From Escherichia phage LL11, in sequence record NC_048064.1: a DNA stretch of 45,185 bases; one strand, written 5' to 3'. The notes below the pieces were generated by a model. The model was not told the DNA's origin. It made no database searches and saw nothing but the letters and a program-made list of their open reading frames with translations. Positions 8,786 to 31,282 of this stretch are shown here, one piece after another; positions within the stretch are counted from its first letter, which is position 1, and each line of letters starts with the position of its first letter. Position numbers and translations under genes: made by a program.

Positions 8786-8823
8786 GGCTCTTATTAAGTA
8801 CATTAAATAACTGGAGATTGATT

Positions 8824-9902: not shown

Positions 9903-9911
9903 GTCAAGGGT

Positions 9912-9929
9912 TGTCTCACGTGTGAGACA
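9912..9929 (+). repeat. hairpin palindrome (family copy 4)
   Basis: TGTCTCACGTGTGAGACA with extended GGG/CCT flanks, directly after the stop at 9902. Confidence 0.7.
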
Positions 9930-9962
9930 GCCTTTCATCATATTGATTGGAGGATTAACTTT

Positions 9963-13158: not shown

Positions 13159-13256
13159 TGCAAACTGCTTTTATTATTCTTGGTATCATATTATTTATGG
13201 TAGTATTCTGGGCTTTCTCTGGCATTGACCCAGATTGTGATGGTAACTACGACTGA
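13158..13256 (+). CDS. hypothetical small hydrophobic peptide (32 aa)
   Basis: MQTAFIILGIILFMVVFWAFSGIDPDCDGNYD; its stop is followed directly by the conserved box at 13257. Confidence 0.2.
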   Translation: MQTAFIILGIILFMVVFWAFSGIDPDCDGNYD

Positions 13257-13297
13257 GTTATACTCAAGGTCACTTACGAGTGGCCTTTATGAATAAC
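13257..13297 (+). promoter_or_regulatory. conserved stop-adjacent element GTTATACTCAAGGT-hairpin-GCCTTTATGAAT (copy 1)
   Basis: Identical 14-nt 5' box and 12-nt 3' box as at 31217-31260, flanking a different hairpin (GGTCACT-TACG-AGTGGCC). Confidence 0.5.
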
Positions 13298-13324
13298 TTA
13301 TTCCTACTTATTTTGTCTAACATG

Positions 13325-13347
13325 ATTTACTGGACACTATAGAAGGA
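13325..13347 (+). promoter_or_regulatory. phage RNAP promoter
   Basis: ATTTACTGGACACTATAGAAGGA; leader hairpin CCTAGACAATCTAGG follows. Confidence 0.75.
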
Positions 13348-13411
13348 AAGCCTAGACAATCTAGGTTTATAAGGTAGTATAGGTAATTAAGTAAATATAG
13401 GAGAGATAAAT

Positions 13412-13789
13412 ATGTCTATGGTAACTACTCTGGTATTCGTAGCTCAATACTTTCGTGGTCTTGCTAATAAGTTCAAGTCCAAGGCTATCAAAGCTATTGA
13501 GGCTCGCATCGAAGCAGTACAGTCAGAGCAAGTTAAAGTTGAAGAACATCGTAGTTCTCAAATGATTGACTGTCATAACCGCCACTATGCATCTCGTGAT
13601 GAACTAAATGCACGTCAAGTCAAAGAGGTAGAAGATATGCTGGCACGTCACCAGCAAGAGCGTGACAGCCTGAAAGCTGAATTTGAAGAGAACAAGGCAT
13701 CCATCGCCCTTGTACATCAAGCCGCATCTGACAGCCTGAAGAAAGAGATTGTTATGCTGGAAATTGAGTTAGACAACCTGACCAAATAA
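13412..13789 (+). CDS. hypothetical coiled-coil protein (125 aa)
   Basis: ORF track; AGGAGAG RBS; hydrophobic N-terminus then charged helical sequence. Confidence 0.5.
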   Translation: MSMVTTLVFVAQYFRGLANKFKSKAIKAIEARIEAVQSEQVKVEEHRSSQMIDCHNRHYASRDELNARQVKEVEDMLARHQQERDSLKAEFEENKASIALVHQAASDSLKKEIVMLEIELDNLTK

Positions 13790-13810
13790 TTACGGGACAC
13801 TATAGAACAA
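13788..13810 (+). promoter_or_regulatory. phage RNAP promoter with conserved structured leader
   Basis: AATTACGGGACACTATAGAACAA, then a 22-nt hairpin and the 13-mer TGATTGTGTAGTG shared with the promoter at 18117. Confidence 0.7.
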
Positions 13811-13866
13811 TAGGTCGGCTTAGTTCGGCCTATGATTGTGTAGTGTAACAATAGGAGACTAAATAA

Positions 13867-14673
13867 ATGGCACGTGGTGATTTTGATTTTGGTGCTCAGG
13901 TTACTAAAGCTGAAGGTAAGGTTTTTAAGAACCCTGAAGTTGGTGATCATGAAGCAGTAATCTCTGGCATCATTCATGTGGGTTCCTTCCAAGATATCTT
14001 TAAGAAAGGTAATACCACTGAAGTTAAGAAGCCAGCAAACTTTGTTCTTGTTAAGATTGTACTGATGGGTGACGACGACAAGAACGAAGATGATTCTCGC
14101 ATGGAACAGTGGATGGCTGTGCCTCTGAAGTCTGGTGACAAGGCAACCTTGACTAAGTTCCTGAATGCAGTTGACCCTAAAGAGCTGCTTGGTGGTTTCG
14201 ATGACTTCATCGGTGAATGCCTGACTGCAACTATGGTTGGCTCTGGCGACAAGAATGATGATGGTACTTTCAAGTATGTTAACTGGAAAGGCTTTGGCGG
14301 TATGCCTGATAAGTTGAAGAAGCTTGTACTGGCTCAGGTAGAAGAGGAAGGTCTGTCTATGACAGGTCATATCACCTTCGACAAGCTGACCAAAGAAATC
14401 CTTGATGACATTCCTGCTAACTTGGTGCGTCAATACTTCCTTAATGAAACACCTCGTGGTAAGAACCTGTCTGTTGCTGGTTCTCACGTAGAAGCAATCA
14501 TTAAAGCTGCTCGTGAAGAAGACCCAGAGTGGAAGAAAGCCAAGAAGAAAGATGACGAGGATGCTACTCCAGCTAATCGTAAATCTCTGGATACTGGTGA
14601 GCCTGTTCCACAGGAAGTACCTGAAGCAGAAGATACTCCTGCACCGGAGATGGATGAGGACGCGGAATATTAA
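13867..14673 (+). CDS. putative ssDNA-binding protein (gp2.5-like) with acidic C-terminal tail; function uncertain
   Basis: 268 aa; own strong promoter and RBS; codon usage typical of highly expressed genes; C-terminus ...EAEDTPAPEMDEDAEY resembles acidic aromatic-terminated tails of T7 replication proteins; located between DNAP and exonuclease. Confidence 0.45.
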   Translation: MARGDFDFGAQVTKAEGKVFKNPEVGDHEAVISGIIHVGSFQDIFKKGNTTEVKKPANFVLVKIVLMGDDDKNEDDSRMEQWMAVPLKSGDKATLTKFLNAVDPKELLGGFDDFIGECLTATMVGSGDKNDDGTFKYVNWKGFGGMPDKLKKLVLAQVEEEGLSMTGHITFDKLTKEILDDIPANLVRQYFLNETPRGKNLSVAGSHVEAIIKAAREEDPEWKKAKKKDDEDATPANRKSLDTGEPVPQEVPEAEDTPAPEMDEDAEY

Positions 14674-14682
14674 GGAGAAAGG

Positions 14683-14901
14683 ATGAAAGTACAAATCGTA
14701 ACCCTGCACTGCAAGAAAGGTATCACAACGCTCGGAGGTGGCACTTTCCACTCTTTCTCCGAAGGGGAGATTTATGCTGACCTGCACTACATCTGGCGCG
14801 ACGGACAGCACGTGGTGAACTACAGCGACCCAGCTACGGGGAAACGCCACGGCGTATCGCTTCCGGCACATGACATTGCTCAGGTGAACACAGTTTTATA
14901 A
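14683..14901 (+). CDS. hypothetical protein (72 aa)
   Basis: ORF track; AGGAGAAAGG RBS. Confidence 0.5.
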   Translation: MKVQIVTLHCKKGITTLGGGTFHSFSEGEIYADLHYIWRDGQHVVNYSDPATGKRHGVSLPAHDIAQVNTVL

Positions 14902-14902
14902 A

Positions 14903-14918
14903 GTCTCACGTGTGAGAC
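14903..14918 (+). repeat. hairpin palindrome (family copy 5)
   Basis: GTCTCACGTGTGAGAC, 2 nt after the stop at 14901 and 16 nt before promoter 14934. Confidence 0.7.
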
Positions 14919-14933
14919 AAATCGGTGTCCGGT

Positions 14934-14956
14934 ATTTACTGGACACTATAGAAGAG
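14934..14956 (+). promoter_or_regulatory. phage RNAP promoter (exact window consensus)
   Basis: ATTTACTGGACACTATAGAAGAG. Confidence 0.8.
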
Positions 14957-15006
14957 AAGAATTTTAATCGGCGATAATGCCATAACCAACAAAAGGAGAA
15001 TTTAAT

Positions 15007-15378
15007 ATGTTCAAGATTGAAACTATCGTAAACCGTGTTGTTAAAGGTGCTGCTCTGGTATCCGTTGAGTCTTTCATTATCGTCGATGAAGCTGATCAAC
15101 TGGTAGCTGGTACTAAGGCTTACGATACCCGTGAAGAAGCTCAGGCTAAGATTGACAGCATGGGTAACTTCGCTGCTGGTCTGGAGTTCGCTCGTGCTTG
15201 CTTCCCTGAGCAGGCTGACAAAGCTCAGATTGGTAAGGCTAATATCGTAGCTGAATATCTGGATTGGGTTGCTGCTGGTAAACCAGTGAAAGAAGTTAAG
15301 GCTGCTGAAGAAGCTGAAGCTCCAGCAGAAGAAGTAGCTGCACCGGAAACTCCGGTAAGCGAAGAGGAAGAATTTTGA
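15007..15378 (+). CDS. hypothetical highly acidic protein (123 aa) ending ...EEEEF
   Basis: Monocistronic unit: consensus promoter at 14934, AAAGGAGA RBS, terminator at 15437; codon usage like highly expressed genes; acidic C-terminal tail ending in Phe. Confidence 0.6.
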   Translation: MFKIETIVNRVVKGAALVSVESFIIVDEADQLVAGTKAYDTREEAQAKIDSMGNFAAGLEFARACFPEQADKAQIGKANIVAEYLDWVAAGKPVKEVKAAEEAEAPAEEVAAPETPVSEEEEF

Positions 15379-15436
15379 TAATAGCAGGTGTTGCCTCTGT
15401 TAGTCCTGGTTGACTATCACGCTCACCTCATCTAAT

Positions 15437-15470
15437 GCCCTGTCTGCCTTAGTGTAGGCAGGGTCTTTTG
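15437..15470 (+). terminator. rho-independent terminator
   Basis: GC-rich stem-loop CCCTGTCTGCC...GGCAGGG followed by TCTTTTG. Confidence 0.65.
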
Positions 15471-15495
15471 CGTAATAGTTATTGGAGAATGAATT

Positions 15496-15786
15496 ATGCC
15501 GACTATTGAAGAACGTTTCCTGATTCACGTAAGCTTCTCGCCCATACATCTTGGTTATCTTATCACTATTCTATTAGGTGAAGAGATCTATCTGCATAAC
15601 TACTTAATACCAGAGTATGTATGCCGTCGAGATAAGATACACCCTGCTAATTGGGCGAGAGAGTGGTTGCGTGAACATGTGCTGAAGGAGTGGCCTACAT
15701 GCGACCAAACTTCGACTTCGGAGCTACAGTATCGGAAGACAATAATCTCATCCTGTGGCCAACTGAAGGTAATCGAATCGCTTTAA
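15496..15786 (+). CDS. hypothetical protein (96 aa), overlaps exonuclease start
   Basis: ATG 15496 with GGAGA RBS; C-terminal third overlaps the exonuclease gene in another frame, so the real extent is doubtful. Confidence 0.3.
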   Translation: MPTIEERFLIHVSFSPIHLGYLITILLGEEIYLHNYLIPEYVCRRDKIHPANWAREWLREHVLKEWPTCDQTSTSELQYRKTIISSCGQLKVIESL

Positions 15787-16727
15787 TAGACGCTGATATG
15801 TTACCTTACATCGTCGGGTATACAATCAGTGACATGACTTATGTACGAGCTACAACTCGTGTTAAGTCAGGACAAGTCCCATCAATCAAAGATACCTCTG
15901 AGTGTAAGCAAGCGTGTGACCGTGTGAACTCCTTGCTTAACTCTTGGGTGTATGCAGCAGAGTGTGATGCAGCTAAGTTATTCATGACGAAGTCAGAAGC
16001 TAACTTCCGTGTCCGCCTAGCATTCACCAAACCTTATAAAGGTCAACGTAAGACCGAGAAGCCTCCATTCTTCTATGAAATGCGAGAGCATCTCTTAGAG
16101 GTTCACGGTGCAGTCTTGGCAGATGGAGATGAGGCCGACGATCTCATGAGCATTGCACAATGGGATAGCCATCGCCGCTTCCAGCAAGATACAGGCAACG
16201 AGTTCCCTATCGGTAGTCCAGAGCATAAAGCATTCTCTGATACTTGCATCGTTTCCTTGGATAAGGATTTGATGATTGTACCCGGTTGGCATCTTCAGCC
16301 GGGAGGTGAGAAGAAATGGGTAGAACCTATGGGTTGGCTTGAGTTACGCCGCAAGGCTAATGGTCAAGTCAAAGACCTAAAAGGTGCTGGCCTCATGTTC
16401 CATTATGCACAGATGGTTATTGGTGATGATATTGATAACTATGCTGGCATACCTGGACGTGGTGCTAAATACGCCTATGATCTTCTCAAAGATTGTAAGA
16501 CAGAGAAAGAGTTGTACATGGCAGTGCTTGGTGCTTACAAGGCTAAGTTCGGACATGGACAAGTTAAGATTAAGAATTACCGAGGTGGTTATCGTATCGG
16601 CAAGGCTTTTGACCTGATGCTCGAATGTGGTCGCCTAGCTCACATGGCAAGATTCAAAGGTGATATATGGCGAGCCGATAAGAACCCAATCTTGTGGGGA
16701 GATGATGCGGAATGGTTAGCAAATTAA
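15699..16727 (+). CDS. 5'-3' exonuclease (T7 gp6-like, FEN family)
   Basis: ATG 15699 with AAGGAG 8 nt upstream (track start 15690 is a GTG); N-terminal acidic motif IALIDADMLPY, DGDEADD, GDDIDNYAGIPG. Confidence 0.75.
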   Translation: MRPNFDFGATVSEDNNLILWPTEGNRIALIDADMLPYIVGYTISDMTYVRATTRVKSGQVPSIKDTSECKQACDRVNSLLNSWVYAAECDAAKLFMTKSEANFRVRLAFTKPYKGQRKTEKPPFFYEMREHLLEVHGAVLADGDEADDLMSIAQWDSHRRFQQDTGNEFPIGSPEHKAFSDTCIVSLDKDLMIVPGWHLQPGGEKKWVEPMGWLELRRKANGQVKDLKGAGLMFHYAQMVIGDDIDNYAGIPGRGAKYAYDLLKDCKTEKELYMAVLGAYKAKFGHGQVKIKNYRGGYRIGKAFDLMLECGRLAHMARFKGDIWRADKNPILWGDDAEWLAN

Positions 16728-17122
16728 AATCATCGGAGGTAGCAGCTTATAAGAGGGAATTGCTAGAGAAGCAAGGATGGAAGTGCCCCCTATGTGGCGG
16801 CAGTCTCAAGGCTGTTACTCCTATAAACCGTGTACTTGACCATGACCATGAGACAGGATTCTGCCGTGCTGTTGTATGCAGAGGGTGCAATGGTGCAGAA
16901 GGAAAGATTAAGGGTGTTATCTCTGGTTATGGTAAGGCTGGTAACAACCGTTACTTCCAGCTTCAATGGTTAGAGCGACTATATGAATACTGGAAGTTAC
17001 ATAGTACGCCTCAGACAGATAAGTTATATCACAAACACCAAACGGAGGCAGAGAAGCGCGAGGCTAAGAACCGTAAGGCACGCCTTGCTTATGCAAGAAA
17101 GAAGGAGGTTAAAGTTGGGTAA
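16712..17122 (+). CDS. endonuclease VII-type Holliday junction resolvase (HNH/zinc)
   Basis: 136 aa; CPLCGG ... LDHDHETGFCRAVVCRGCNGAEGKIKG parallels the T4 endonuclease VII zinc-binding/HNH core as I remember it. Confidence 0.75.
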   Translation: MVSKLKSSEVAAYKRELLEKQGWKCPLCGGSLKAVTPINRVLDHDHETGFCRAVVCRGCNGAEGKIKGVISGYGKAGNNRYFQLQWLERLYEYWKLHSTPQTDKLYHKHQTEAEKREAKNRKARLAYARKKEVKVG

Positions 17123-18122
17123 GCTTCGCAGCTTGTACAAAGACTCCGAGGTACTTGATGCAATCGAGCAAGCTACCGACGAGAAAGGTAATGTTAATTA
17201 CAATGAGATGGCACGTGTATTATCGTGTCACCCTGTGGGTAAGAAGATTACCCGCCAGTTGGCTCGATACTGGCATGGTCAATTCAAGAAGACCAAGAAG
17301 AATGGTGATTATTACCAGACTCTTCTGCAAGAAGATAAGCGTATCAAAGAAGAGCGTAAGCTCAGGACTCCTGACCGCTACGAGGATTTGGCTATTGTGC
17401 CATTGCCTGACTCGCCTCATCGAAGTGTACTGGTGATCCCTGATACTCATGCACCTTATGAGCACCCAGATACCCTAGAGTTCCTTGCAGCCGTGGCAGC
17501 ACGTTACCGTCCAGACACAGTGGTACACCTAGGAGATGAGGCAGACAAACATGCCCTGTCATTCCATGATTCGGATCCAAATTTGGACAGTGCTGGCATG
17601 GAGTTAGAGAAAGCTCGTGTCTTCATGCACAAGTTGCACAAGATGTTTCCTGTGATGCGCCTGTGTCACTCTAATCACGGCTCTATGCACTTCCGTAAGG
17701 CAAGCGCCAAGGGTATTCCAGTGCAATATCTTCGTACCTACCGAGAAGTCTTCTTCCCGCAGGGAGGTGGCGACCAGTGGGATTGGCAGCATACGCATGT
17801 ACTTGAGTTGCCGAATGGCGAACAGGTGGCATTCAAGCATCAACCTGCTGGCTCGGTCCTAGCAGATGCAGCGCATGAGCGTATGAATCTTGTGTGTGGT
17901 CACTTGCATGGTAAGATGTCTGTGGAGTACGCACGTAATACACATGAACAGTATTGGGCTGTGCAGGGTGGCTGCTTAATTGATGAGTCATCCCGTGCAT
18001 TTGCCTATGGGCGTGAGTCTAAATACAAGCCAGCATTAGGTTGTGTGGTTATTCTGGAAGGTGTGCCTCATATTGTCCCGATGCAAACCAATAGCAACAA
18101 TCGCTGGATTGGTAAGATTTAG
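17115..18122 (+). CDS. metallophosphoesterase (calcineurin-like phosphatase)
   Basis: Motifs VIPDTHAPYEH, HLGDEAD, CHSNHG, CGHLHG; start taken as TTG 17115, 6 nt after AGGAGG (in-frame ATG at 17208 is the alternative); the track start 16983 overlaps the resolvase gene. Confidence 0.7.
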   Translation: MGKLRSLYKDSEVLDAIEQATDEKGNVNYNEMARVLSCHPVGKKITRQLARYWHGQFKKTKKNGDYYQTLLQEDKRIKEERKLRTPDRYEDLAIVPLPDSPHRSVLVIPDTHAPYEHPDTLEFLAAVAARYRPDTVVHLGDEADKHALSFHDSDPNLDSAGMELEKARVFMHKLHKMFPVMRLCHSNHGSMHFRKASAKGIPVQYLRTYREVFFPQGGGDQWDWQHTHVLELPNGEQVAFKHQPAGSVLADAAHERMNLVCGHLHGKMSVEYARNTHEQYWAVQGGCLIDESSRAFAYGRESKYKPALGCVVILEGVPHIVPMQTNSNNRWIGKI

Positions 18123-18139
18123 TTGACACTATAGAACAA
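18117..18139 (+). promoter_or_regulatory. phage RNAP promoter, SP6-like variant
   Basis: ATTTAGTTGACACTATAGAACAA overlapping the phosphoesterase stop; followed by hairpin AGGGCAGG-TACTAG-CTTGCCCT and the shared 13-mer TGATTGTGTAGTG. Confidence 0.7.
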
Positions 18140-18190
18140 AGGGCAGGTACTAGCTTGCCCTTGATTGTGTAGTGAATGGAGGAATTAATT

Positions 18191-18661
18191 ATGTCAAATA
18201 TTGATATTGGCGAATACGTCGTACGCCGTGCAGCTTACCGAGATGCCAACTGGAATAAACTGTGTGAAAGCTTAAACAAGAAACCAGATGAGGTATTCAA
18301 AGTATCCCGTGCAGAACCTAATTATAACTCTATCATGTTAGAAGGTGTGGAGAAGCGCGAATGGTATGCACCTTACTTCAAGGTTGTTGACTCATTGCAA
18401 GGTGAAGATCCTGACACGTTGGACAACAATATGGTTACTAAACCAAAACACTACGAGTTCTTTGATGGCGTAGAGGCAATCACTATCATTGCCCGCAGTA
18501 TGACTGAAAAGCAATTCGCTGGGTACTGCATGGGTAATGCCCTTAAGTATCGCCTGCGTGCGGGTAAGAAGTTCAATACTGAAGAAGACCTGAAGAAAGC
18601 AGATTACTACAAAGAGTTATTCCAGAAGCATCGTCACGAATGTATTGATGAGGATATTTGA
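18191..18661 (+). CDS. hypothetical protein with DUF3310-like C-terminal region
   Basis: ATG 18191 with GGAGGA RBS; C-terminal PKHYEFFDGVEAITIIARSMTEKQFAGYCMGNALKYRLRAGKK pattern recalls DUF3310 phage proteins (from memory). Confidence 0.5.
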   Translation: MSNIDIGEYVVRRAAYRDANWNKLCESLNKKPDEVFKVSRAEPNYNSIMLEGVEKREWYAPYFKVVDSLQGEDPDTLDNNMVTKPKHYEFFDGVEAITIIARSMTEKQFAGYCMGNALKYRLRAGKKFNTEEDLKKADYYKELFQKHRHECIDEDI

Positions 18662-18662
18662 T

Positions 18663-19610
18663 ATGAATATCTTTGAGTTCCTAGGTCTTCCAGAAGATCA
18701 CCGCAATCACCCATTCATGCTGGTGAAGCATCGCGGTGAAGTTCCTGAGAAGAAATTAACTTTTCCATGTTATGCACAGGTGAAACGAGATGGAATATTC
18801 AGTGCTGTTGTGGTGCGCAATGATGGTGCTGTTGCCATCTTTGGTCGTACTGGTAAGAAGCTCGCAAATGTTGAATCCTTGGAAAAGACATTTAGTGTAT
18901 TTCCTGTCGGGTTGTATCTTGGTGAGTTGCAATCTATGGCTGTTGATGTTTATCTTGAAGCTCTGTCAGGAGTGGTAAACCCTAATCGTACAGAGCCACT
19001 TGACTTCATAGGCCAGCAGATTAAAGACAACCTGTATATCGACTTCTTCGATATATTAACCATTAAGGCATTCCATGATGGATTCACTGATGTTTCTTAT
19101 CTCAAACGTTACGATGCTTTACATCGTCGCATCGGCGCTCATCTTAGCGGGTACAACGCTATCCTTCCTATTACTCCTTGCCATAATGAGCGAGAAGTTG
19201 AAGCGTTTGCGCAAGAGCAGATAGACGCAGGCCGAGAGGGTGCTGTATTCAAACTGGACTGCGATTATGAAGCAGGCCACAAAGGTTATCGTCAGACTAA
19301 AGAAGTCCGTAAGGTAACTTATGACCTTACTTGTATTGGCTTTGAAGAAGGTAAAGGTAAGTACAAAGGTAAGGTAGCTAACCTCATTTTCAAATGGAAA
19401 GGAGGCAAGACAATCAAAGCTATGCTCGGTAAAGGGTGGACTCATGCAGATGCAGAACAGATGTTCCACGATATTAAACATGGCGGACGATTGAATGTCA
19501 TTGGTAAAATCTTTGAAGTCAAAGGTCTTCAGGATTCAAGCAAGGGCAACATTCGTCTGCCCAAAGCGGGAGAATTAAGACATGACAAAGATGAACCAGA
19601 TTTCTTTTGA
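18663..19610 (+). CDS. ATP-dependent DNA ligase
   Basis: KxDG adenylation motif (AQVKRDGIF), further nucleotidyltransferase-like blocks; start ATG 18663 with GAGGA RBS (track start 18645 is a TTG). Confidence 0.8.
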   Translation: MNIFEFLGLPEDHRNHPFMLVKHRGEVPEKKLTFPCYAQVKRDGIFSAVVVRNDGAVAIFGRTGKKLANVESLEKTFSVFPVGLYLGELQSMAVDVYLEALSGVVNPNRTEPLDFIGQQIKDNLYIDFFDILTIKAFHDGFTDVSYLKRYDALHRRIGAHLSGYNAILPITPCHNEREVEAFAQEQIDAGREGAVFKLDCDYEAGHKGYRQTKEVRKVTYDLTCIGFEEGKGKYKGKVANLIFKWKGGKTIKAMLGKGWTHADAEQMFHDIKHGGRLNVIGKIFEVKGLQDSSKGNIRLPKAGELRHDKDEPDFF

Positions 19611-19797
19611 TTCCATGAAGGCAACTCGTGCCGTTGAGGTGGCTGAGGCTATCTTTGAAACTTTATCCTGTGGCATGGAAGTGCCATATACTTTACTTGC
19701 TGATGCAGAAGAGCTTGGTCTTTCTGTAGAAGCTATCCAAGAGAAGGTTGAAGAACTCTATGGTACAGACGAAGAAGAAACCGACGATTTCATTTGA
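19582..19797 (+). CDS. hypothetical acidic protein (71 aa)
   Basis: ORF track; GGGAGAA RBS; acidic C-terminus. Confidence 0.45.
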   Translation: MTKMNQISFDSMKATRAVEVAEAIFETLSCGMEVPYTLLADAEELGLSVEAIQEKVEELYGTDEEETDDFI

Positions 19798-19801
19798 AGG
19801 G

Positions 19802-19930
19802 ATGGAGATGCTTGAGATGATTCTCAAGCCTTCCTCTCCGAAAGTGACTAAGACTCACGAAGAGTTAATAGTAGATGAAGTGAAGCGTTACATTATGGAT
19901 TGTGTCAGAGCACAACTGGTGGTTCGATGA
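19802..19930 (+). CDS. hypothetical small protein (42 aa)
   Basis: ATG 19802 with AAGGGA RBS; stop overlaps the GNAT start (ATGA). Confidence 0.3.
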   Translation: MEMLEMILKPSSPKVTKTHEELIVDEVKRYIMDCVRAQLVVR

Positions 19931-20388
19931 TACGTCCAGCTTCCTTCCTAGATATTCCTGAGATTATTAATCTCGGGGACAAGTATGTAGAAGAAGAAGT
20001 CAAAGTGGTGGCACATCATTCTGCGTCGTGGAATGCGGAACAAAGTGCAGCTAACCTATGTGCCTCTCTAATCAGAGATGATTTATTCCTGTGGGTGGCT
20101 GTAGATGAAGGGCAGATTGTAGGCTTCCTGTGGGCTGGCTATCACGACCTAGCACCTTGGACGTCAGTGCGTGTTGCATCGGATATTCTCTTCTATGTTG
20201 TACCGGAGAAGCGAGGGACGCTACTTGGTATGCGACTAATCAAGGCCTATAAGCAATGGGCTTTCGAGAAGGAGTGTGCCGAAGTTAGATTATCTATCGC
20301 ATCTGGTATCAATGAAGAACGTGTTGGACGTATGTATAGGCGAATGGGCTTTGAGACGTTCGGCACTGTGTATAACTTAAAACTCTAA
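19927..20388 (+). CDS. GNAT-family N-acetyltransferase
   Basis: MIRPASFLDIPEI..., QIVGFLWAGY, RGTLLGMRLIKAYKQWAFEKECAEVRL resemble the acetyl-CoA binding core of GNAT enzymes. Confidence 0.7.
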   Translation: MIRPASFLDIPEIINLGDKYVEEEVKVVAHHSASWNAEQSAANLCASLIRDDLFLWVAVDEGQIVGFLWAGYHDLAPWTSVRVASDILFYVVPEKRGTLLGMRLIKAYKQWAFEKECAEVRLSIASGINEERVGRMYRRMGFETFGTVYNLKL

Positions 20389-20397
20389 GGAGATAAC

Positions 20398-20607
20398 ATG
20401 GGTGTCGTGAAGAAGGCATTTAAAGCAATTGGTCTTGCACCCGATACGCCGAAAATTGAGGCAGCGAAAGTGCCAGCACAACAATTAGAACGTCAGCCTG
20501 AGACGGAAGCAGAAGATGTGACGCTGGGTCAGGACGAGGACACCACAACCACTTCTCGTGGTAAGCGTGGGTTAGTTCGCCCTGTAGCATCAAGCTTAGG
20601 AGTATAA
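20398..20607 (+). CDS. small virion-associated-type protein (gp6.7-like), tentative
   Basis: 69 aa low-complexity protein just upstream of the portal gene; AAGGAGA RBS. Confidence 0.4.
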   Translation: MGVVKKAFKAIGLAPDTPKIEAAKVPAQQLERQPETEAEDVTLGQDEDTTTTSRGKRGLVRPVASSLGV

Positions 20608-20611
20608 TATA

Positions 20612-23067: not shown

Positions 23068-23073
23068 TTCAGT

Positions 23074-23096
23074 ATTTACTGGACACTATAGAAGGG
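23074..23096 (+). promoter_or_regulatory. phage RNAP promoter for the major capsid gene
   Basis: ATTTACTGGACACTATAGAAGGG followed by leader hairpin GGGAGAAAAGTTCTCCC. Confidence 0.8.
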
Positions 23097-23146
23097 AGAA
23101 AAGTTCTCCCTAGTTATCAATTTGATTTATAAGGAGATTATAATAC

Positions 23147-24346
23147 ATGTCTACACCGAATACTCTGACTAACGTTGCTGTATCTGCGTCCGGTGAGGTT
23201 GACAGCCTTCTCATTGAGAAGTTTAATGGTAAGGTCAATGAGCAGTACCTGAAAGGTGAGAACATTCTGTCTTACTTTGATGTACAAACTGTTACTGGCA
23301 CTAACACAGTGAGCAACAAATATTTGGGCGAAACTGAGTTGCAGGTGCTAGCACCGGGTCAGTCTCCTAATGCCACCCCTACTCAGGCGGATAAAAACCA
23401 GTTGGTAATTGATACCACTGTCATTGCTCGTAACACTGTGGCCCACATCCACGATGTACAAGGTGACATCGATAGCCTGAAACCAAAACTGGCTATGAAC
23501 CAAGCCAAGCAACTGAAACGTCTGGAGGACCAGATGGCAATTCAGCAGATGCTGTTAGGCGGTATTGCTAACACCAAGGCCAAACGTAACAAGCCGCGTG
23601 TTAAAGGGCATGGATTCTCTATCAACGTTAACGTAACTGAGAGTGAAGCACTGGCTAACCCTCAGTATGTTATGGCTGCGGTAGAGTATGCTCTGGAGCA
23701 ACAGCTTGAGCAGGAAGTGGATATCTCTGATGTAGCGATTCTGATGCCGTGGAAATTCTTCAACTCTCTGCGTGACGCAGACCGCATTGTAGATAAGACT
23801 TACACTATTAGTCAGTCCGGTGCTACTATCAGTGGCTTTGTTCTGTCTTCCTACAACTGCCCTGTTATCCCGTCTAACCGATTCCCGACATTTGTACAGG
23901 GTGCTCCACATCACTTACTGTCTAACGAAGATAACGGTTATCGTTATGACCCTACCGCAAAGATGAACGGCGCTGTAGCTGTGCTGTTTACTGCTGATGC
24001 ATTGCTGGTAGGTCGCACCATTGAAGTAACAGGTGACATCTTCTATGAGAAGAAAGAGAAGACTTATTATATTGATACCTTCATGGCTGAAGGTGCAATC
24101 CCTGACCGCTGGGAGGCTGTGTCTGTAGTTACCACTAAACGCGACGAAACCTCTGGTGCTGCTCTTGGTAAAGGCGACGATCACGACACTGTACTGGCTC
24201 GTGCACAGCGTAAGGCTGTCTACGTCAAGACCGCAGGTGCTGCCGCATTATCCGCTGCTAGCCTGCAAGCAGAAGACTTAGTAGCCGCTGTACGTGCTGT
24301 AATGGCTAATGACGTCAAGCCGACTGCACTGAAACCTACTGAGTAA
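23147..24346 (+). CDS. major capsid protein
   Basis: 399 aa; dedicated promoter, strong RBS AAGGAGA, highly-expressed codon usage, terminator immediately downstream. Confidence 0.9.
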   Translation: MSTPNTLTNVAVSASGEVDSLLIEKFNGKVNEQYLKGENILSYFDVQTVTGTNTVSNKYLGETELQVLAPGQSPNATPTQADKNQLVIDTTVIARNTVAHIHDVQGDIDSLKPKLAMNQAKQLKRLEDQMAIQQMLLGGIANTKAKRNKPRVKGHGFSINVNVTESEALANPQYVMAAVEYALEQQLEQEVDISDVAILMPWKFFNSLRDADRIVDKTYTISQSGATISGFVLSSYNCPVIPSNRFPTFVQGAPHHLLSNEDNGYRYDPTAKMNGAVAVLFTADALLVGRTIEVTGDIFYEKKEKTYYIDTFMAEGAIPDRWEAVSVVTTKRDETSGAALGKGDDHDTVLARAQRKAVYVKTAGAAALSAASLQAEDLVAAVRAVMANDVKPTALKPTE

Positions 24347-24355
24347 TAACCTATG

Positions 24356-24390
24356 CCCTATCTACCTTGCGTAGGTAGGGTTCTTTTGTT
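24356..24390 (+). terminator. rho-independent terminator after the major capsid gene
   Basis: CCCTATCTACC-TTGCG-TAGGTAGGG stem-loop followed by TTCTTTTGTTT. Confidence 0.75.
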
Positions 24391-24401
24391 TAGGAGGATT
24401 C

Positions 24402-25142
24402 ATGCCTTTAATTCAAAATACAAGTGATGTAGGCCGTATCATGGCTGAGGCTTCCTTCAATATCATTGATAGCAAGCTGGAAGCAGTTAACCTGTGTATG
24501 CGAGCTATTGGTCGTGAGGGTGTGGATTCCCTTGACTCTGGCGACTTAGATGCTGAAGATGCTAATAAGATTATTGATATTGTATCCCAGCGGTTCCAGT
24601 ACAACAAGGGTGGTGGTTGGTGGTTTAACAGAGAACCTAATTGGCTACTTAAACCTGACACAAATGGTGAAGTAAACATGCCTAACAATTGTCTTGCTGT
24701 TCTCCAATGTTATGCTCTAGGTGAACGTAAAGTACCTATGACTATACGCGCAGGCAAGTTGTACTCTGTTTGGAATCACACTTTCGATATGTCAAAGTAT
24801 GTGAATCAGGATGGGCGTATTAGGTTGACTCTGGTGACATTACTGCCTTTCGAGCATCTACCTGCAAGTGTAATGCAGGCCATTGCCTATCAGGCTGCCG
24901 TAGAGTTTATTGTGTCTAAAGATGCAGATAAGACTAAACTACAAGCACACCAGCAGGTTGCAGCACAATTGATGATTGATGTTCAGTCAGAGCAGTCTTC
25001 TCAGAAGAGGCTTAATATGCTTGTACATAACCCCACTCAGCGCAACTTTGGCATCATGGCAGGTGGATCTCAGAATGTACCAGCGTTCTCCTATTCACCT
25101 TATGACACTTACCCTGTAAGGCCGTGGGAGGTTGATAGATAA
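24402..25142 (+). CDS. tail tubular protein A (gp11-like)
   Basis: 246 aa, first gene after the capsid terminator, followed by the large tail tube B gene. Confidence 0.8.
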   Translation: MPLIQNTSDVGRIMAEASFNIIDSKLEAVNLCMRAIGREGVDSLDSGDLDAEDANKIIDIVSQRFQYNKGGGWWFNREPNWLLKPDTNGEVNMPNNCLAVLQCYALGERKVPMTIRAGKLYSVWNHTFDMSKYVNQDGRIRLTLVTLLPFEHLPASVMQAIAYQAAVEFIVSKDADKTKLQAHQQVAAQLMIDVQSEQSSQKRLNMLVHNPTQRNFGIMAGGSQNVPAFSYSPYDTYPVRPWEVDR

Positions 25143-27547
25143 TGGAAGTACAAGGTTCTTTAGGTCGTCAGATTCAAGGTATTAGCCAACAACCAGCAGC
25201 AGTGCGGTTAGACGGTCAATGTACTGATATGGTTAATATGGTTCCAGATGTAGTCAACGGTACAAAATCCCGCATGGGTAGCACTCATATTGCAAAGCTA
25301 ATGGAAGCAGGCAGTGACAATATGGCAACACATCACTATAGAAGAGGGGATGGGGTAGAAGAGTATTTCTTTGTCATGAAGAAAGGTAGCGTGCCAGAAA
25401 TATTTGACAAAGAAGGGCGTAAATGCACTGTGATCTCTCAGGATGCACCTATGGCTTATCTTGCTGAGGTTGTGAATCCGAGAGAAGACGTGCAGTTCAT
25501 GACTATTGCTGATGTAACATTTATGCTTAACAGGCGTAAAGTAGTGAAAGCTCGTAGTGATAAGTCTCCAAGTGTGGGAAACAAGGCTATTGTGTTTTCT
25601 GCCTACGGGCAGTATGGCACTTCGTACACTATCTCTATTAACGGCGAGCAAGCGGCGACCTTCAAAACTCCAGATGGAAGTGACCCTAGTCATGTAGAAC
25701 AGATTCGCACTGAGTACCTAGCCACTAAGCTATATGAGAGTTTACAGACATGGAGTAAAGCGTCACAGTACACCTTGCAAAGAGAAGGCACTAGTATCTA
25801 CATTGAAACTAAAGATGGTAGTGATTTCACTATTACTACCACAGATGGGGCCAAAGGTAAGGACTTGGTTGCCATAAAGAACCGAGTGTCATCTACAGAC
25901 TTACTTCCATCAAGAGCACCAGAAGGGTACAAGGTGCAGGTGTGGCCTACAGGGAGTAAACCAGAATCTCGGTATTGGCTAGAGGCTGTACCTAAAGAAG
26001 GAGGTAACTTAGTTGCTTGGCAAGAAACTATTGCAGCAGATGTGTTACTTGGATTTGATAAAGATACTATGCCCTATGTTATAGAGCGTACAGGTATTGT
26101 AGGAGGTGTGGCACAGTTTAAGATACGACACGGTGATTGGGAAGATCGTAAGGTAGGTGACGACCTGACTAACCCTATGCCTTCTTTCATTGATGAAGAT
26201 GTACCACAGGCGATTGGTGGTATGTTCATGGTGCAGAACCGTCTTTGTGTTACAGCAGGCGAAGCCGTCATAGCAACTAGGACTTCTCACTTCTTTGACT
26301 TCTTCCGCTTCTCCGCAGTGTCTGAGGTGGCAACAGATCCTTTCGATATTTTCTCAGATGCAAGTGAGGTGTACCAGCTTAAACATGCAGTTACTTTAGA
26401 TGGAGCAACGGTATTATTCTCAGACACATCTCAGTTCATACTTCCGGGGGATAAAGTATTAGAGAAGTCTAATGTCATACTCAAGCCTGCTACAACTTTC
26501 GAAGTTGACAACAGGGTGCCACCTGTGGCAACGGGTGAGTCCGTGATGTTTGCTACAAGTGAGGGTGCTTACTCTGGTGTGCGTGAGTTTTATACCGATT
26601 CTTACAGCGACACTAAGAAGGCGCAGGCTGTTACTAGTCATGTTAACAAGTTGATAGAAGGTAATATCACTCATATGGTAGCGAGCACTAATATCAACAG
26701 ATTACTTGTAGTAACAGACAAAGACCCTAATATTGTCTATTGCTACGACTGGTTGTGGCAAGGGACAGATCGTGTACAGTCTGCATGGCATAAGTGGGTG
26801 TGGCCTAAAGATACTTTGATTCGCTCTATGTTCTATTCCTCAGAGATGTTATATCTCATTGTAGAACGAGGTAATACTGGTTTGTATCTAGAGGTTATGG
26901 ATATGGGTGATGCTCTTACTTATGGTTTAGTTGACAGAATTAGACTGGATAGGCAAGCAGAGTTGATCTTCACCTATGATGCTAATACAGACCAGTGGGT
27001 TTCTAATGAGTTGCCTTGGAAGCCTACTGACCCAGCCTTACTTGAGTGTGTGATAATTCAAGGGTGGCCTGCTTATATTGGTGGTTCTTTTCATTTTGAA
27101 TATGATGAAGCCAGTAATAAGCTAATTACAACTTTTGATTTATCAGAAGAAGGCACTAATGCTATAGCTGTCGTAGGGCAGTTGTATCAGCAGGAGTTTG
27201 AGCCAACACAGGTCGTTATTCGAGATAACCAAGATAGAGTGTCCTACATAGATGTGCCAGTGGTAGGCCTAGTTCACCTTAACTTGGATAAATACCCTGA
27301 CTTTGAAGTTCATATCAAGAACTTAAAGAGTGGCAAATTAAGAAAAGCTTTGGCATCTAACAGGAAAAGCGGGGCACTTAATAATGTTGTTGGTTATGTC
27401 AAGCCAGAAGAGGGGTCATTCAAATTTCCACTAAGATCCCTTAGTACAGATACTGTTTATCGTATCATTGTTAACTCCCCTCATACATTCCAACTCAGGG
27501 ATATTGAGTGGGAAGGTTCGTATAACCCAACTAAGAGGAGGGTATAA
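25142..27547 (+). CDS. tail tubular protein B (gp12-like)
   Basis: 801 aa, conserved position and size. Confidence 0.85.
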   Translation: MEVQGSLGRQIQGISQQPAAVRLDGQCTDMVNMVPDVVNGTKSRMGSTHIAKLMEAGSDNMATHHYRRGDGVEEYFFVMKKGSVPEIFDKEGRKCTVISQDAPMAYLAEVVNPREDVQFMTIADVTFMLNRRKVVKARSDKSPSVGNKAIVFSAYGQYGTSYTISINGEQAATFKTPDGSDPSHVEQIRTEYLATKLYESLQTWSKASQYTLQREGTSIYIETKDGSDFTITTTDGAKGKDLVAIKNRVSSTDLLPSRAPEGYKVQVWPTGSKPESRYWLEAVPKEGGNLVAWQETIAADVLLGFDKDTMPYVIERTGIVGGVAQFKIRHGDWEDRKVGDDLTNPMPSFIDEDVPQAIGGMFMVQNRLCVTAGEAVIATRTSHFFDFFRFSAVSEVATDPFDIFSDASEVYQLKHAVTLDGATVLFSDTSQFILPGDKVLEKSNVILKPATTFEVDNRVPPVATGESVMFATSEGAYSGVREFYTDSYSDTKKAQAVTSHVNKLIEGNITHMVASTNINRLLVVTDKDPNIVYCYDWLWQGTDRVQSAWHKWVWPKDTLIRSMFYSSEMLYLIVERGNTGLYLEVMDMGDALTYGLVDRIRLDRQAELIFTYDANTDQWVSNELPWKPTDPALLECVIIQGWPAYIGGSFHFEYDEASNKLITTFDLSEEGTNAIAVVGQLYQQEFEPTQVVIRDNQDRVSYIDVPVVGLVHLNLDKYPDFEVHIKNLKSGKLRKALASNRKSGALNNVVGYVKPEEGSFKFPLRSLSTDTVYRIIVNSPHTFQLRDIEWEGSYNPTKRRV

Positions 27548-28272
27548 TGGCAGTAATGGCAACAGTAGGATCAAGCCTAGCCAGTATGTTCTCCAGTAGT
27601 GCAGGTGCTGCGGCTGCTAGTAGTGCTGCTGGTAGTGCCGCCGCTGGAAGTGGTGGTGTGCTTGGCTCTGTCGGAAGTTTCTTAGGTGGAAGCTCTGCTG
27701 GCTTTTCTAATGCAGGTTTGTTGTCTGCTGGATTACAAGGCTTAAACTTACTAGGCGGCCTATTCGGTGGACGAGATGCCGCTAAGGCTATGCAGAAAGC
27801 ACAAGAAGAAGAGTGGAGACAAAGGCTAGAAGCCACACGTGAAGCCTATTCTTCTGTGGCAAATGCAGAACGGTCTGCTGCAAAGCAATATCATTCTGAC
27901 TTCCTTAATAATCAAATTTCACTGATGCAGCAACGAGCGCAAGTTGCAGTAATGGCAGGTGCTACTGGAACAGGTGGTAGCTCCATCACATCCATGCTCA
28001 ATGATTTGACGGCAGAAGGTGGTCGTAATCAGTCAACCATTATAGATAATTATGAGAATCAGCAAATCAACTTTGCCAACCAGTTGAAGTCTATTCAACG
28101 CAGTGGACAGATGCAGATGCGAACGTTTGACAAACCTTCAGCTTTGGGTACTTTGGTGAAAGGTATACCAAGCCTTGCATCTTCCTATGTCACCGGAAGT
28201 AAAGTAGGTATGGCGCTTGGCAAGGCTATCACTGAGTCTCGTACTTATTCATCAGGAACTAGAGGAGTTTAA
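27547..28272 (+). CDS. internal virion protein A (Gly/Ala/Ser-rich)
   Basis: 241 aa with low-complexity N-terminal region; position after the tail tube genes. Confidence 0.7.
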   Translation: MAVMATVGSSLASMFSSSAGAAAASSAAGSAAAGSGGVLGSVGSFLGGSSAGFSNAGLLSAGLQGLNLLGGLFGGRDAAKAMQKAQEEEWRQRLEATREAYSSVANAERSAAKQYHSDFLNNQISLMQQRAQVAVMAGATGTGGSSITSMLNDLTAEGGRNQSTIIDNYENQQINFANQLKSIQRSGQMQMRTFDKPSALGTLVKGIPSLASSYVTGSKVGMALGKAITESRTYSSGTRGV

Positions 28273-31215
28273 ATGGCAATTGAACGTCAAGCTGTACAAG
28301 GTTTAGAAAGAGTACAGTCAAGGGTCGCGCCAACACCTATGTCTTTCACACCACGACAAGTGAGTATCTCAGGGGGCGCTGATGCCTCCGGTAGTAGATT
28401 TTTGGAAGACTTAGTAAACGCCGCAAGTAGTGTGGCTGATGTCACTACTGCTATCCTTAATCAGCAAGTAGAAGACGATAAGGTTCGCCAGATGGATAGG
28501 GCTTTGTCTGGCATGATGCCTTCTGAGGATGCCACGGTAGGCGGTGCTCGTGCTCATATGCTGGTTAGTTTACAAAATGATGTAATCTCACAGACAACTG
28601 CGCTACAAGCAGAAGCACAGCGATTTCAAGGTAGTGACGAGGATTGGGAAAACTATGTAGTTCAATCTCGTAATGAGGTACAAAATAGGTTATGGCAAAG
28701 TTATCCAGAGCTTCGTGGTGACAAAGATTCTATGAGGCTTGTCACTAACGCGTTCATGGAGCAGCAACCTAGAATTACTGCAACTAGAGCAGAGGCTAAA
28801 CTTCGTCAAGAAGAAGAAGCACGAATGCAATCTATGCAGTCTCGTATTATCATGGCTACAAGGGACGTAGCGCCAGATGCCACTGGTGCAGCTCTTATCC
28901 AGCTACAAAAAGAAGCACTGGCGATGGGTCTTAGTAAACCTGAGTTTGATCAAATGGTTGCTAAGATTGCATCTGAAAGAGCGGCAGTAGGAGATGATAG
29001 TCTTATTCAGGGAACCAAGGCATTGGTGGATGATAAGGGTGTCTCTTTGTATGACCGTGTTGGTGCTTTGCAAACTGGAGAAATTCAAGCTAACAGAACT
29101 TGGGCTGCTCAGAATCAGGTTGCCCTCTTCGAGAAGAAAGATGCAGCTATAAAGGCATTCGATGCAGGGCAACTTACTCGCGAAGAGTTACTTCAGGTGA
29201 TGCAGAATCACAATGAATTGACTGGTGGCACTGCTTGGTCTGATAGCGAGATCAAGGCTATCTTCGATAGGCAAGCTAAGGTTAATGCAGAGAAAGCAAA
29301 GCTAGAAGATCTTATTGCACGAGGTGAATCTGGGTCACCTTTAGGCTTACAGGACATTAGTAAGGATGACAGAAAGACATATGCTGAAGCCTTAGTTAGT
29401 ACCTACACTAAGCTGGCAGAAGATGAAATTGCCCGTACTGGTGCAACGGGAGAACAGGCTGAAGCTATTCGCGGTAGGTATGAGCAGATGCGTTATCTTA
29501 AATTGGGTCAACAGCTTATTGAAGACCCGATCATTAAGGAAAGGTATTCGTCGCTTATGCAGCTATCCTCTGCCAACCTCAAGGATATGAATGTTGAACC
29601 TGAAGCACTGCAAACTATCATGCGAGCACGTGATTCTATTCCAGAGGATGCACGTCGTGCTGTTATGGGAGACAAAGAATATGCCTTTGTTGAGAACTAT
29701 GACTTAGCAACTCGCATGGGGTATAACACAGGTCAAGCTATTGAGTTTGCACAGAATGCCTCTCGCGGCGAGAAATTACAAGGTTCTGTGCTCAAAGAAC
29801 TTAATGATGATGTAGATGGAGTAGTTAGTGACATTGCAGGAGGCAGCTGGCTCACTTTTGGTGATAACATGAGTGAAATGGGACGTGACATTATGATGGA
29901 GGAGGCAAGTACAATTGCTAGAGCAATGAAGGTTGCAGGCCATAATAATGACACTATTAAGCGTCACCTTAAATCCTACCTTACAAGCCAGTATACACAA
30001 TTATCAGAAGGTTTCTTTACTCAAGGTGTTCTTGTAAAAGGAGACATTCGTACGTTAGGAGATACTATAGGAGTAAACCAAGGAGACGTCCCAATTACTC
30101 TCCGTCAGTACCTAGATAATAACAAACAAGCCCTGCTAGATGCATCAGGTGGGTTAGAGGAAGGCGACCTATATTTTGATGTAGATGCGAAGCGCGGCCT
30201 CTTTACTATACGTGCAGGCTCTGGTCGTGTGCCTGTTACACAGGCAATGCCTTTGTCTGAAATCAAAGGGCAATCCTTGCTTAAGCAACGGTATGATGCA
30301 GAGGTTAAAGCACGTGATGAAGGGCGTAAGAACTTTGAAGCACAACAAATGCGAATGTGGGGCGCAGGTGGCTACCAAGCACAACCACCTGCAAAGACTA
30401 CAGCCAAAACTGTAGGCTCACGTGGGATTGCTGACTTCTTAATGTCACCTGCCTTTGCATCAGGCGAGAATCTACCAGCAAACTTTGAGTTCGGATATAA
30501 GAGAAATAATATGGACTTCTACAATTATGTAGCCAAGATGGAGAATAATGCCAATGTAGGTTTTGACCGAGTAGCTGGTGTTTATACACCATACAAAGAT
30601 GCACATGGTCAGTCTGTAGGGTACGGTCACTTCCTTACTACTGAAGAGAAGAAGAACGGATACATTATGATTGGTACAGAGAAAGTGCCATTCACTCCGG
30701 GACAATCTCAATTAACACCAGAACGAGCCATGCGCCTTCTACAGCAAGACTTGAAGGGTCATGTGCCAAGTACTTCAGGATGGGCTGTTCCCTTCGAAGA
30801 GATGCACCCAGGTGTTCAGCGTGGCCTTATGGACTTGTCCTATAATTTAGGAAAAAGCGGGATCCAGAATGCTCCTAAGGCATACGCTGCATTTAAGGCT
30901 GGCAAGTTTACTGATGGCTTCATCGAGATGCTATCTACTGCATCTACTGAAGGCAAGCGCAGCACTGGATTGTTAGTTCGTAGGGCGGAAGCTTATAACC
31001 TTGCACAGAGTGGTGGTGCTATCCCTAAGATTAGTGAAGTGGAGACACGAGCAGATGGATCTATGTATGTGAAGTTTGCAGGACAGATGTCAGAGGCTTT
31101 CGTAAATAAATCAATCTACAATCAGATTGGTAAGGATGGGTGGATGCAAGTGTATCCTCCAAAGCAAGGTGCACTTGCACCTGACACTCAGATTGGTAGA
31201 ATCAAACTGAGCTAG
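28273..31215 (+). CDS. internal virion protein B with C-terminal lysozyme-like (muramidase) domain
   Basis: 980 aa; C-terminal region VGYGHFLTTEEKKNGY ... GLMDLSYNLG has the look of a GH24 lysozyme-type domain. Confidence 0.75.
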   Translation: MAIERQAVQGLERVQSRVAPTPMSFTPRQVSISGGADASGSRFLEDLVNAASSVADVTTAILNQQVEDDKVRQMDRALSGMMPSEDATVGGARAHMLVSLQNDVISQTTALQAEAQRFQGSDEDWENYVVQSRNEVQNRLWQSYPELRGDKDSMRLVTNAFMEQQPRITATRAEAKLRQEEEARMQSMQSRIIMATRDVAPDATGAALIQLQKEALAMGLSKPEFDQMVAKIASERAAVGDDSLIQGTKALVDDKGVSLYDRVGALQTGEIQANRTWAAQNQVALFEKKDAAIKAFDAGQLTREELLQVMQNHNELTGGTAWSDSEIKAIFDRQAKVNAEKAKLEDLIARGESGSPLGLQDISKDDRKTYAEALVSTYTKLAEDEIARTGATGEQAEAIRGRYEQMRYLKLGQQLIEDPIIKERYSSLMQLSSANLKDMNVEPEALQTIMRARDSIPEDARRAVMGDKEYAFVENYDLATRMGYNTGQAIEFAQNASRGEKLQGSVLKELNDDVDGVVSDIAGGSWLTFGDNMSEMGRDIMMEEASTIARAMKVAGHNNDTIKRHLKSYLTSQYTQLSEGFFTQGVLVKGDIRTLGDTIGVNQGDVPITLRQYLDNNKQALLDASGGLEEGDLYFDVDAKRGLFTIRAGSGRVPVTQAMPLSEIKGQSLLKQRYDAEVKARDEGRKNFEAQQMRMWGAGGYQAQPPAKTTAKTVGSRGIADFLMSPAFASGENLPANFEFGYKRNNMDFYNYVAKMENNANVGFDRVAGVYTPYKDAHGQSVGYGHFLTTEEKKNGYIMIGTEKVPFTPGQSQLTPERAMRLLQQDLKGHVPSTSGWAVPFEEMHPGVQRGLMDLSYNLGKSGIQNAPKAYAAFKAGKFTDGFIEMLSTASTEGKRSTGLLVRRAEAYNLAQSGGAIPKISEVETRADGSMYVKFAGQMSEAFVNKSIYNQIGKDGWMQVYPPKQGALAPDTQIGRIKLS

Positions 31216-31216
31216 T

Positions 31217-31260
31217 GTTATACTCAAGGTTTGTCTCACATGTGAGACATGCCTTTATGA
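31217..31260 (+). promoter_or_regulatory. conserved stop-adjacent element GTTATACTCAAGGT-hairpin-GCCTTTATGAAT (copy 2)
   Basis: Same flanking boxes as 13257-13297; here the hairpin is the palindrome TGTCTCACATGTGAGACA (31232-31249, family copy 6). Confidence 0.5.
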
Positions 31261-31282
31261 ATGACATTAATTAGGAGGTAAC

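Follow-up and report, generated by a model that had tools for sequence, protein, structure and literature searches.

The 45,185-nucleotide (nt) sequence of Escherichia phage LL11 (NC_048064.1), called the window in the following, comes from a podophage of the SP6/K1E/K1-5 type (genus Vectrevirus, subfamily Molineuxvirinae). Two elements on its + strand, site 1 and site 2, are built from the same pair of short sequence boxes and are analysed here. Site 1 lies downstream of the DNA polymerase/gp13.5/gp14 message, at the end of a gp14-like open reading frame (ORF) of 32 amino acids (13158-13256). An SP6-type phage promoter (TTTACTGGACACTATAGAAG) is found 26 nt 3' of it at 13326..13345 on the + strand and matches the window's own promoter consensus exactly. 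Promoters of this type (TTTACYGGACACTATAGRAG) are present in 13 copies, all on the + strand, and none is expected by chance. Site 2 is located between the genes of two large internal virion proteins, one of 980 amino acids upstream (28273-31215) and one of 1267 amino acids downstream, which has the Shine-Dalgarno sequence AGGAGG at 31273-31278 and its ATG at 31283. The flanking DNA is 94-97% identical to the phages EEc4, VEc3 and K1E, and the region of site 2 is closest to Citrobacter phage CrRp3.

The first box, the 14-nt sequence GTTATACTCAAGGT, was found as an exact match only at 13257-13270 and 31217-31230 in the window, and the other best matches carry at least two mismatches. The second box, the 12-nt sequence GCCTTTATGAAT, is exact in the window only at 13283-13294 and 31251-31262. 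At site 1, GTTATACTCAAGGT starts 0 nt past the TGA stop codon (13254-13256) of the gp14-like ORF, and at site 2 it starts 1 nt past the TAG (31213-31215) of the upstream virion protein gene. An exact repeat of a 14-mer alone is unremarkable since about 3.8 such pairs are expected in 45 kb; for the ordered co-repeat of the 14-nt and 12-nt boxes, about 7e-6 is expected by chance. The initial annotation of this DNA had described paired identical boxes behind stop codons, and this was borne out, with each box present exactly twice. Its starting positions 13257 and 31217 are right, but the end that it gave as 31260 is 2 nt short, as the box extends to 31262. When the window was scanned with a loose two-box regular expression allowing 2-3 mismatches per box, hundreds of chance pairs were returned, and the scan was useful only for flagging position 9902. 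Covariance models were used instead. Between the boxes, site 1 has the hairpin AAGGUCACU-uacg-AGUGGCCUU and site 2 the hairpin AAGGU.UGUCUCA-caug-UGAGACA.GCCUU. That the two hairpins differ in sequence and keep their pairing, as had been noted before, agrees with the sequence and the folding of both sites.

RNA folding showed that each site is a single two-stem hairpin of about 50 nt on the + strand RNA. The boxes had been thought to flank a separate variable hairpin, and this part of the earlier description has to be replaced: the boxes themselves are paired parts of one larger structure. They supply the lower stem (GUUAU with AUAAC or AUGAC), the asymmetric ACUC/UAUGA internal loop and, with AAGGU/GCCUU, the basal part of the upper stem. 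The complete hairpin of site 1 spans 13254..13300 on the + strand according to folding, the covariance model and conservation. Its lower stem of 8 base pairs (bp) joins 13254-13261 (UGAGUUAU, with the TGA stop codon included) to 13293-13300 (AUAACUUA), followed by the 4/5-nt internal loop of 13262-13265 (ACUC) opposite 13288-13292 (UAUGA). The upper stem of 9 bp pairs 13266-13274 with 13279-13287 and is closed by the loop UACG at 13275-13278. Site 2 spans 31213..31269 on the + strand, based on folding, the covariance model and covariation. Here, a lower stem of 9 bp joins 31213-31221 (UAGUGUUAU, with the TAG stop codon included) to 31261-31269 (AUGACAUUA), and the 4/5-nt internal loop is formed by 31222-31225 (ACUC) and 31256-31260 (UAUGA). 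The upper stem, 31226-31238 with 31243-31255, has 13 positions with a U.U mismatch at 31231/31250 and the loop CAUG at 31239-31242.

The minimum free energy (MFE) was -18.6 kcal/mol for site 1 and -25.2 kcal/mol for site 2. Compared to shuffled sequences, site 1 reached z = -4.1 on the + strand and -2.3 on the - strand, and site 2 reached -4.3 and -1.9, respectively. The + strand folds much better than the - strand because several of the pairs are G.U. Both sites lie between cistrons, and at each of them the stop codon of the upstream gene is incorporated into the lower stem.

To identify related elements, a 71-nt sequence around site 1 was used as a blastn query. It matched 895 phage records, among them SP6-like phages, T7 and T7-like phages of Yersinia, Klebsiella and Vibrio. 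In T3 the match falls on a feature annotated as "RNase III recognition site R0.5". The T3 record has ten annotated RNase III stem-loops. A coupling with promoters as at site 1 is seen in its annotation, and T3 sites begin -6 to +19 nt relative to the upstream stop codon. When the two window sites were aligned with seven of the annotated T3 sites and the corresponding T7 regions, a common consensus AGTGnTATACTCAAGGTCACTC..AAGAGTGGCCTTTATGATTnnCATT was obtained. The sequence core ..AGUGnUAnACUCAAGGUC...GGCCUUUAUGAUU.. of the T7-group sites is present in both window sites, in the alignment as well as in the covariance model, and the dot-bracket shape of the window sites is that of T3 R0.3, R0.5, R4.7 and R18.5 and of the T7 R1.1 region. 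For the proximal-box and distal-box pairs that matter to E. coli RNase III (Pertzev & Nicholson 2006), with a box assignment that is partly our reconstruction, the picture is mixed. The proximal AAGG/CCUU and the C.U position are the same in both sites as in T7 R1.1, and the distal pairs of site 1 (A:U, C:G) are those of T3 R1.3 and T7 R18.5, but the distal region of site 2 is non-canonical.

A covariance model was then trained on 14 T7 and T3 sites only, and the window was scanned with it. Site 1 scored 50.9 bits (E = 3e-9) and site 2 scored 40.5 bits (E = 9e-7). Nothing else in the 45-kb window was significant with this model, the next matches having E-values of 0.3 and 2. Another model had been built before with the window sites included and the R6.5 sites of T7 and T3 held out. 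It recovered both R6.5 sites, the T3 match overlapping the annotated feature, and found three sites in SP6. Over the 41 structured columns, the mean core identity to the T7/T3 sites was 0.68 for site 1 and 0.65 for site 2, and the T7/T3 sites average 0.53-0.74 to one another. When both strands of the entire window were compared with Rfam, there were zero matches at the gathering threshold, from which it appears that Rfam 15 has no family for phage RNase III sites. In sequence and structure, both elements are indistinguishable from the RNase III sites of the T7 group. We conclude that they very probably are RNase III processing signals of the T7-group type, acting in the polycistronic + strand transcripts of this SP6/K1E-like phage. 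Directly observed are the sequence, the fold, the strand specificity, the covariation, the positional conservation and the homology to the sites annotated in T3 and to the corresponding ones of T7.

The conservation of the two sites was analysed in relatives that were fetched by anchoring on neighbouring proteins, so that the sampling was unbiased as to the boxes. Of 8 relatives, all have site 2 at the corresponding junction between genes. Site 1 was present in 10 of the 11 testable relatives; one further sequence (L025) ends too early and was left out. SP6 (Zindervirus) and K1-5 have both sites, and site 2 is also present in Proteus phage PM85 (Acadevirus) and Lelliottia phage phD2B (Tuodvirus). 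The core of site 1 is identical in SP6, K1-5, K1E and ten IMG/VR relatives. In both sites, the proximal box and the internal loop are the most conserved parts.

For site 2, covariation was examined in an alignment of 12 sequences from five genera, among them Vectrevirus, Zindervirus, Acadevirus and Tuodvirus. Standard pairs were present in 97.2% of the cells, compared to about 40% when the 3' partners were slid by 1-3 columns. Changes on both sides occurred in 8 of the 22 pairs, and 0 of 500 shuffles reached the observed values. In the upper stem, UCUCA/UGAGA is replaced by UCUAA/UUGGA or UCCAA/UUGGA, and within the box itself an A:U to U:A swap (AUGG...CCUA) is seen in one relative (L009). 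In K1-5, the lower stem is mostly rewritten and yet paired (GUACCUA/UAGGCAC). The covariation passes through G.U intermediates. Covariation among related phages had been named earlier as a means of checking the elements: it was found for site 2, whereas the invariant site 1 was uninformative. With the T7/T3 homology and the strand-specific folding, the covariation of site 2 supports the earlier proposal of a functional RNA structure with preserved pairing.

These data also bear on a role at the DNA level, in which the elements would be palindromic protein-binding sites or recombination joints of mosaic modules, and the RNA fold would be incidental. The upper stem of site 2 belongs to a DNA palindrome family with seven copies in the window, and relatives cease to be homologous precisely at the 3' edge of site 1. 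However, the pairing relies on G.U, which is a mismatch in DNA, the - strand folds poorly and the pairs covary through G.U intermediates. In addition, the conserved core halves are not reverse complements of each other (ACUC and UAUGA), and the T3 homologues are annotated as RNA processing sites. We therefore regard a purely DNA-level function as most improbable. As a separate observation, the sequence directly 3' of the site 1 lower stem (13300-13325 in the window, 12268 onward in SP6) occurs in three unrelated contexts, ..ACTTATTCCTA, ..ACTTAAAATGA and, in SP6, ..ACTTAACTGGAG. The break in homology at this point suggests a mosaic or recombination joint.

The location of both sites directly past stop codons, with site 1 just upstream of a promoter, would also fit signals that end transcription units, either by termination or pausing of the phage RNA polymerase (RNAP) or as intrinsic terminators for the host polymerase. 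Termination at some hairpins is known for T7-like polymerases, and intrinsic terminators and class I terminators of phage RNAPs such as T7 Tphi likewise have a stable hairpin directly past a stop codon. Unlike these, the window sites have no U-tract and do have an AU-rich lower stem with an internal loop. No U-run follows the stem at either site (UAUGAAUAAC or UAUGAAUGAC), and the terminator scan called neither of them, yet it did call other hairpins of the region, for example at 5877-5900 and 15437-15464. The lower stem and the internal loop, which would be superfluous for a terminator, are conserved and covary. Moreover, the homologues in T7 and T3 are processing sites, and T7 has a single terminator for the phage RNAP (PMC6938266). 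We consider a terminator or pause signal very unlikely. The initial annotation had left the choice between a termination signal read by the phage RNAP and a processing signal read by a host RNase. The former is not supported, given the missing U-run and the negative scan at both sites, and the latter is favoured, as a prediction, by the homology to the T7/T3 sites, the strand-specific fold and the covariation.

At 5877-5900, 8 nt past the phage RNA polymerase gene (3242..5869), the hairpin AGGCCATTCC-TTCG-GGAGTGGCCT is followed by TTCTTTT. It strongly resembles an intrinsic terminator and is probably the early terminator for the host RNAP. A further terminator-like hairpin is located at 15437-15464.

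How the two sites would be processed can be proposed from their structure. Each element offers about two helical turns, in which the ACUC/UAUGA loop separates the lower stem (8-9 bp) from the upper stem (9-13 bp), and the double-strand-specific RNase III of the host would bind to the coaxial helix. Because of the internal loop, the enzyme would cut one strand only, with a single cut on the 3' side of the loop at CCUUUAU↓GA. The T7 cleavage coordinates, which we take to be 5887 for R1.1 and 1468 for R0.5 (Dunn & Studier 1983), both fall at CCUUUAU↓G in the T7 sequence. From the alignment to T7 R1.1 and R0.5, the scissile bond is predicted at 13290..13291 in site 1 and at 31258..31259 in site 2, both on the + strand. 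The upstream mRNA would be left with the upper hairpin at its 3' end, which would be protective against 3'-to-5' exonucleases, and the downstream cistron would be freed with a new short 5' leader. At site 2, the cut would generate a 5' leader of 24 nt that contains the AGGAGG at 31273-31278 ahead of the ATG at 31283. From the sequence we infer the cutting by RNase III in vivo, its precise position and its consequences for stability and translation.

This proposal agrees with published work on RNase III. Internal loops confine the enzyme to one phosphodiester bond, and the product with a 3' stem-loop can resist 3'-to-5' exonucleases (PMC1540722). A minimal substrate derived from R1.1 is described there with an 11-bp helix from the cleavage site to the tetraloop, the U.C being counted, and its product with a 2-nt 3' overhang. 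From this geometry, the natural cut would be at CCUUUAU↓GA. T7 has ten RNase cleavage sites in addition to its single terminator and makes mostly polycistronic transcripts, and in its genome promoters and RNase sites commonly occur as pairs (PMC6938266).

A related possibility is that the hairpins bind RNase III, or merely fold, and are not cut but act as regulators of translation or stability. For instance, the lower stem and its extension may hide or expose the downstream ribosome-binding region, or the hairpin may block 3' exonucleases after the decay of the downstream part. At site 2, 4 nt separate the lower stem from the AGGAGG (31273-31278), and in the MFE fold the pairing reaches as far as 31271-31274. 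Cleavage-resistant variants of R1.1 that are still competent for binding exist, and RNase III can regulate by RNA binding (PMC1540722). Also, the distal part of the site 2 upper stem is non-canonical. On the other hand, the proximal box and the internal loop, by which the scissile bond is set in T7 R1.1, are better conserved than the rest of both sites, and the full upper stem of site 1 matches the annotated T3 R1.3. Regulation in the absence of cleavage is quite unlikely in our view, though less so for site 2.

Several points weigh against processing by RNase III or limit its importance. Past the proximal AAGG/CCUU, the upper stem of site 2 deviates from the T7 R1.1 pattern, and its distal region (U.U, U:A, G:C; box assignment partly reconstructed) is non-canonical. 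In the minimal substrate, every substitution in the distal box weakened the binding (PMC1540722), and site 2 may therefore be a weak or a binding-only site. Site 1 is nearly invariant and for this reason provides no covariation evidence of its own. In one SP6-like relative, L024 (IMGVR_UViG_3300045988_001199), which has a gp15 homologue of 79% identity, site 1 is missing from the 1.2 kb upstream; the site is hence dispensable and not universal in the group. None of the T7/T3 sites is syntenic with a window site. RNase III is not required for the growth of T7 (PMC6938266), and the contribution to fitness may accordingly be modest. Finally, no experimental evidence for cleavage in the window phage or in any SP6-like phage was found in the literature searched.

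Besides the two sites, the window has two probable further sites of lower similarity. The first, at 8748..8806 on the + strand, is located directly past the stop codon of the primase/helicase gene and about 30 nt downstream of a promoter at 8696. It is divergent in sequence and consists of a 12-bp lower stem, a 2/3-nt internal loop and a 13-bp upper stem with the palindrome UGUCUCACAUGUGAGACA. Its MFE is -31.3 kcal/mol (z = -7.0), and it scored 13.1 bits (E = 2) with the model trained on T7/T3 only. The positional homologue in SP6 (8523-8588) scored 39.7 bits, but with a model (R1) that had been trained on the window element itself. The second, at 9893..9949 on the + strand, overlaps with the ORF 9726..9902 at its stop codon and is followed by the ORF that starts at 9963. 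It has a 9-bp lower stem, the internal loop AGUC/CAUCA and a 13-bp upper stem (AAGGGUUGUCUCA/UGAGACAGCCUUU). With an MFE of -29.7 kcal/mol (z = -6.2), it was the third match in the window for the T7/T3-only model (16.7 bits, E = 0.3). The loops and basal sequences of both hairpins are divergent. By their predicted structure they are probably RNase III-type sites of the same design; since they fail the T7/T3-only model, we count them as probable relatives and not as members.

The palindrome TGTCTCACRTGTGAGACA occurs in seven copies in the window. Three of them form the apical stems of composite hairpins, namely in site 2 (31232-31249), in 8748-8806 (8768-8785) and in 9893-9949 (9912-9929). Another three, at 5942-5959, 6123-6140 and 14902-14919, are stand-alone hairpins of 7 bp, 2-15 nt ahead of the SP6-type promoters that start at 5962, 6146 and 14935. 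Such hairpins are not long enough for RNase III, and two were flagged as terminator-like. The three copies may serve as a 3'-end stabiliser, a weak terminator or an insulator in front of the promoters. One degenerate copy (7357-7374) is inside the primase/helicase ORF.

A near-continuous hairpin of 19 bp, CUUUUCU.AAAGGUUAUCA-ugg-UGGUAGCCUUU.AGAAAAG, was observed at 42130-42171 between the tail-spike/fibre ORFs 40135..42093 and 42179..43891, with a Shine-Dalgarno sequence immediately 3'. It has a z of -4.35 and matched both covariance models weakly (13.8 and 11.1 bits). In SP6 it is kept at 41698-41739 with a change in the loop only. This hairpin may be a fifth, degenerate site of the RNase III type.

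Elements of this kind have been known since the early work on T7. The GenBank records of SP6, K1-5 and K1E contain no features for RNA processing sites. RNase III sites in SP6-like phages were not found in the full-text literature either, in a search that missed the genome papers of SP6 (Dobbins 2004), K1-5/SP6 (Scholl 2004) and K1E (Stummeyer 2006). Possibly new is only that canonical T7-type sites are explicitly recognised in SP6-like phages. For the annotation, this would define mRNA boundaries in phages that are used for therapy and as a source of RNA polymerase. It leaves the current understanding of how such sites work unchanged. With a consensus common to two subfamilies, a broader range of sites can also be compared to find out why their sequence is so constrained in phages. 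The core ACUCAAGGU...GCCUUUAUGA with its AGUG-type lower stem is as tight between the SP6-like and the T7/T3-like phages as it is among the ten sites of T7, despite the lack of synteny. This conservation exceeds what the published determinants of E. coli RNase III obviously require. A second constraint could be imposed by another phage or host factor that reads the internal loop, or the hairpin could be a mobile module or recombination joint that spreads among podophages. We hold such a constraint to be unlikely; within this idea, the mobile module or recombination joint is favoured because the homology of the relatives ends exactly at the 3' edge of site 1.

Compared to known systems, the window sites resemble most the RNase III sites of T7 and T3 (R0.3, R0.5, R1, R1.1, R1.3, R4.7, R18.5 and others), which form the same two-stem hairpin with a 4/5-nt asymmetric loop and have the core consensus ACUCAAGGUC...GGCCUUUAUGA in common with them. 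The closest individual sites are T3 R0.5, T3 R1.3, T7 R0.5 and T7 R18.5. The upper stem of T3 R1.3 is identical to that of site 1 (AAGGUCACU/AGUGGCCUU), and T7 R0.5 has a stop codon built into its lower stem (GCUGAGUGAU), which is mirrored by the UGA-containing stem of site 1 (ACUGAGUUAU). As in T7 and T3, the sites adjoin phage promoters, and the host is an enterobacterium that has RNase III.

There are also differences. T7 and T3 belong to the Studiervirinae, whereas the window phage is a member of the Molineuxvirinae. One of its sites follows the DNA polymerase cluster and the other separates the genes of the two large internal virion proteins; T7 and T3 have no site behind the DNA polymerase gene or between genes 15 and 16. 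It has two canonical and two or three divergent sites compared to ten in T7. The upper stem of site 2 is longer, with 13 positions and a U.U mismatch, and is borrowed from the palindrome family that is distributed over the genome. Other substrates of the enzyme in E. coli, such as the precursor stems of the 16S and 23S rRNA, the rnc and pnp leaders, the lambda N leader and sib, likewise present about two turns of double-stranded RNA to the same RNase III. In these substrates too, internal loops or bulges can limit the cleavage to one strand (PMC1540722).

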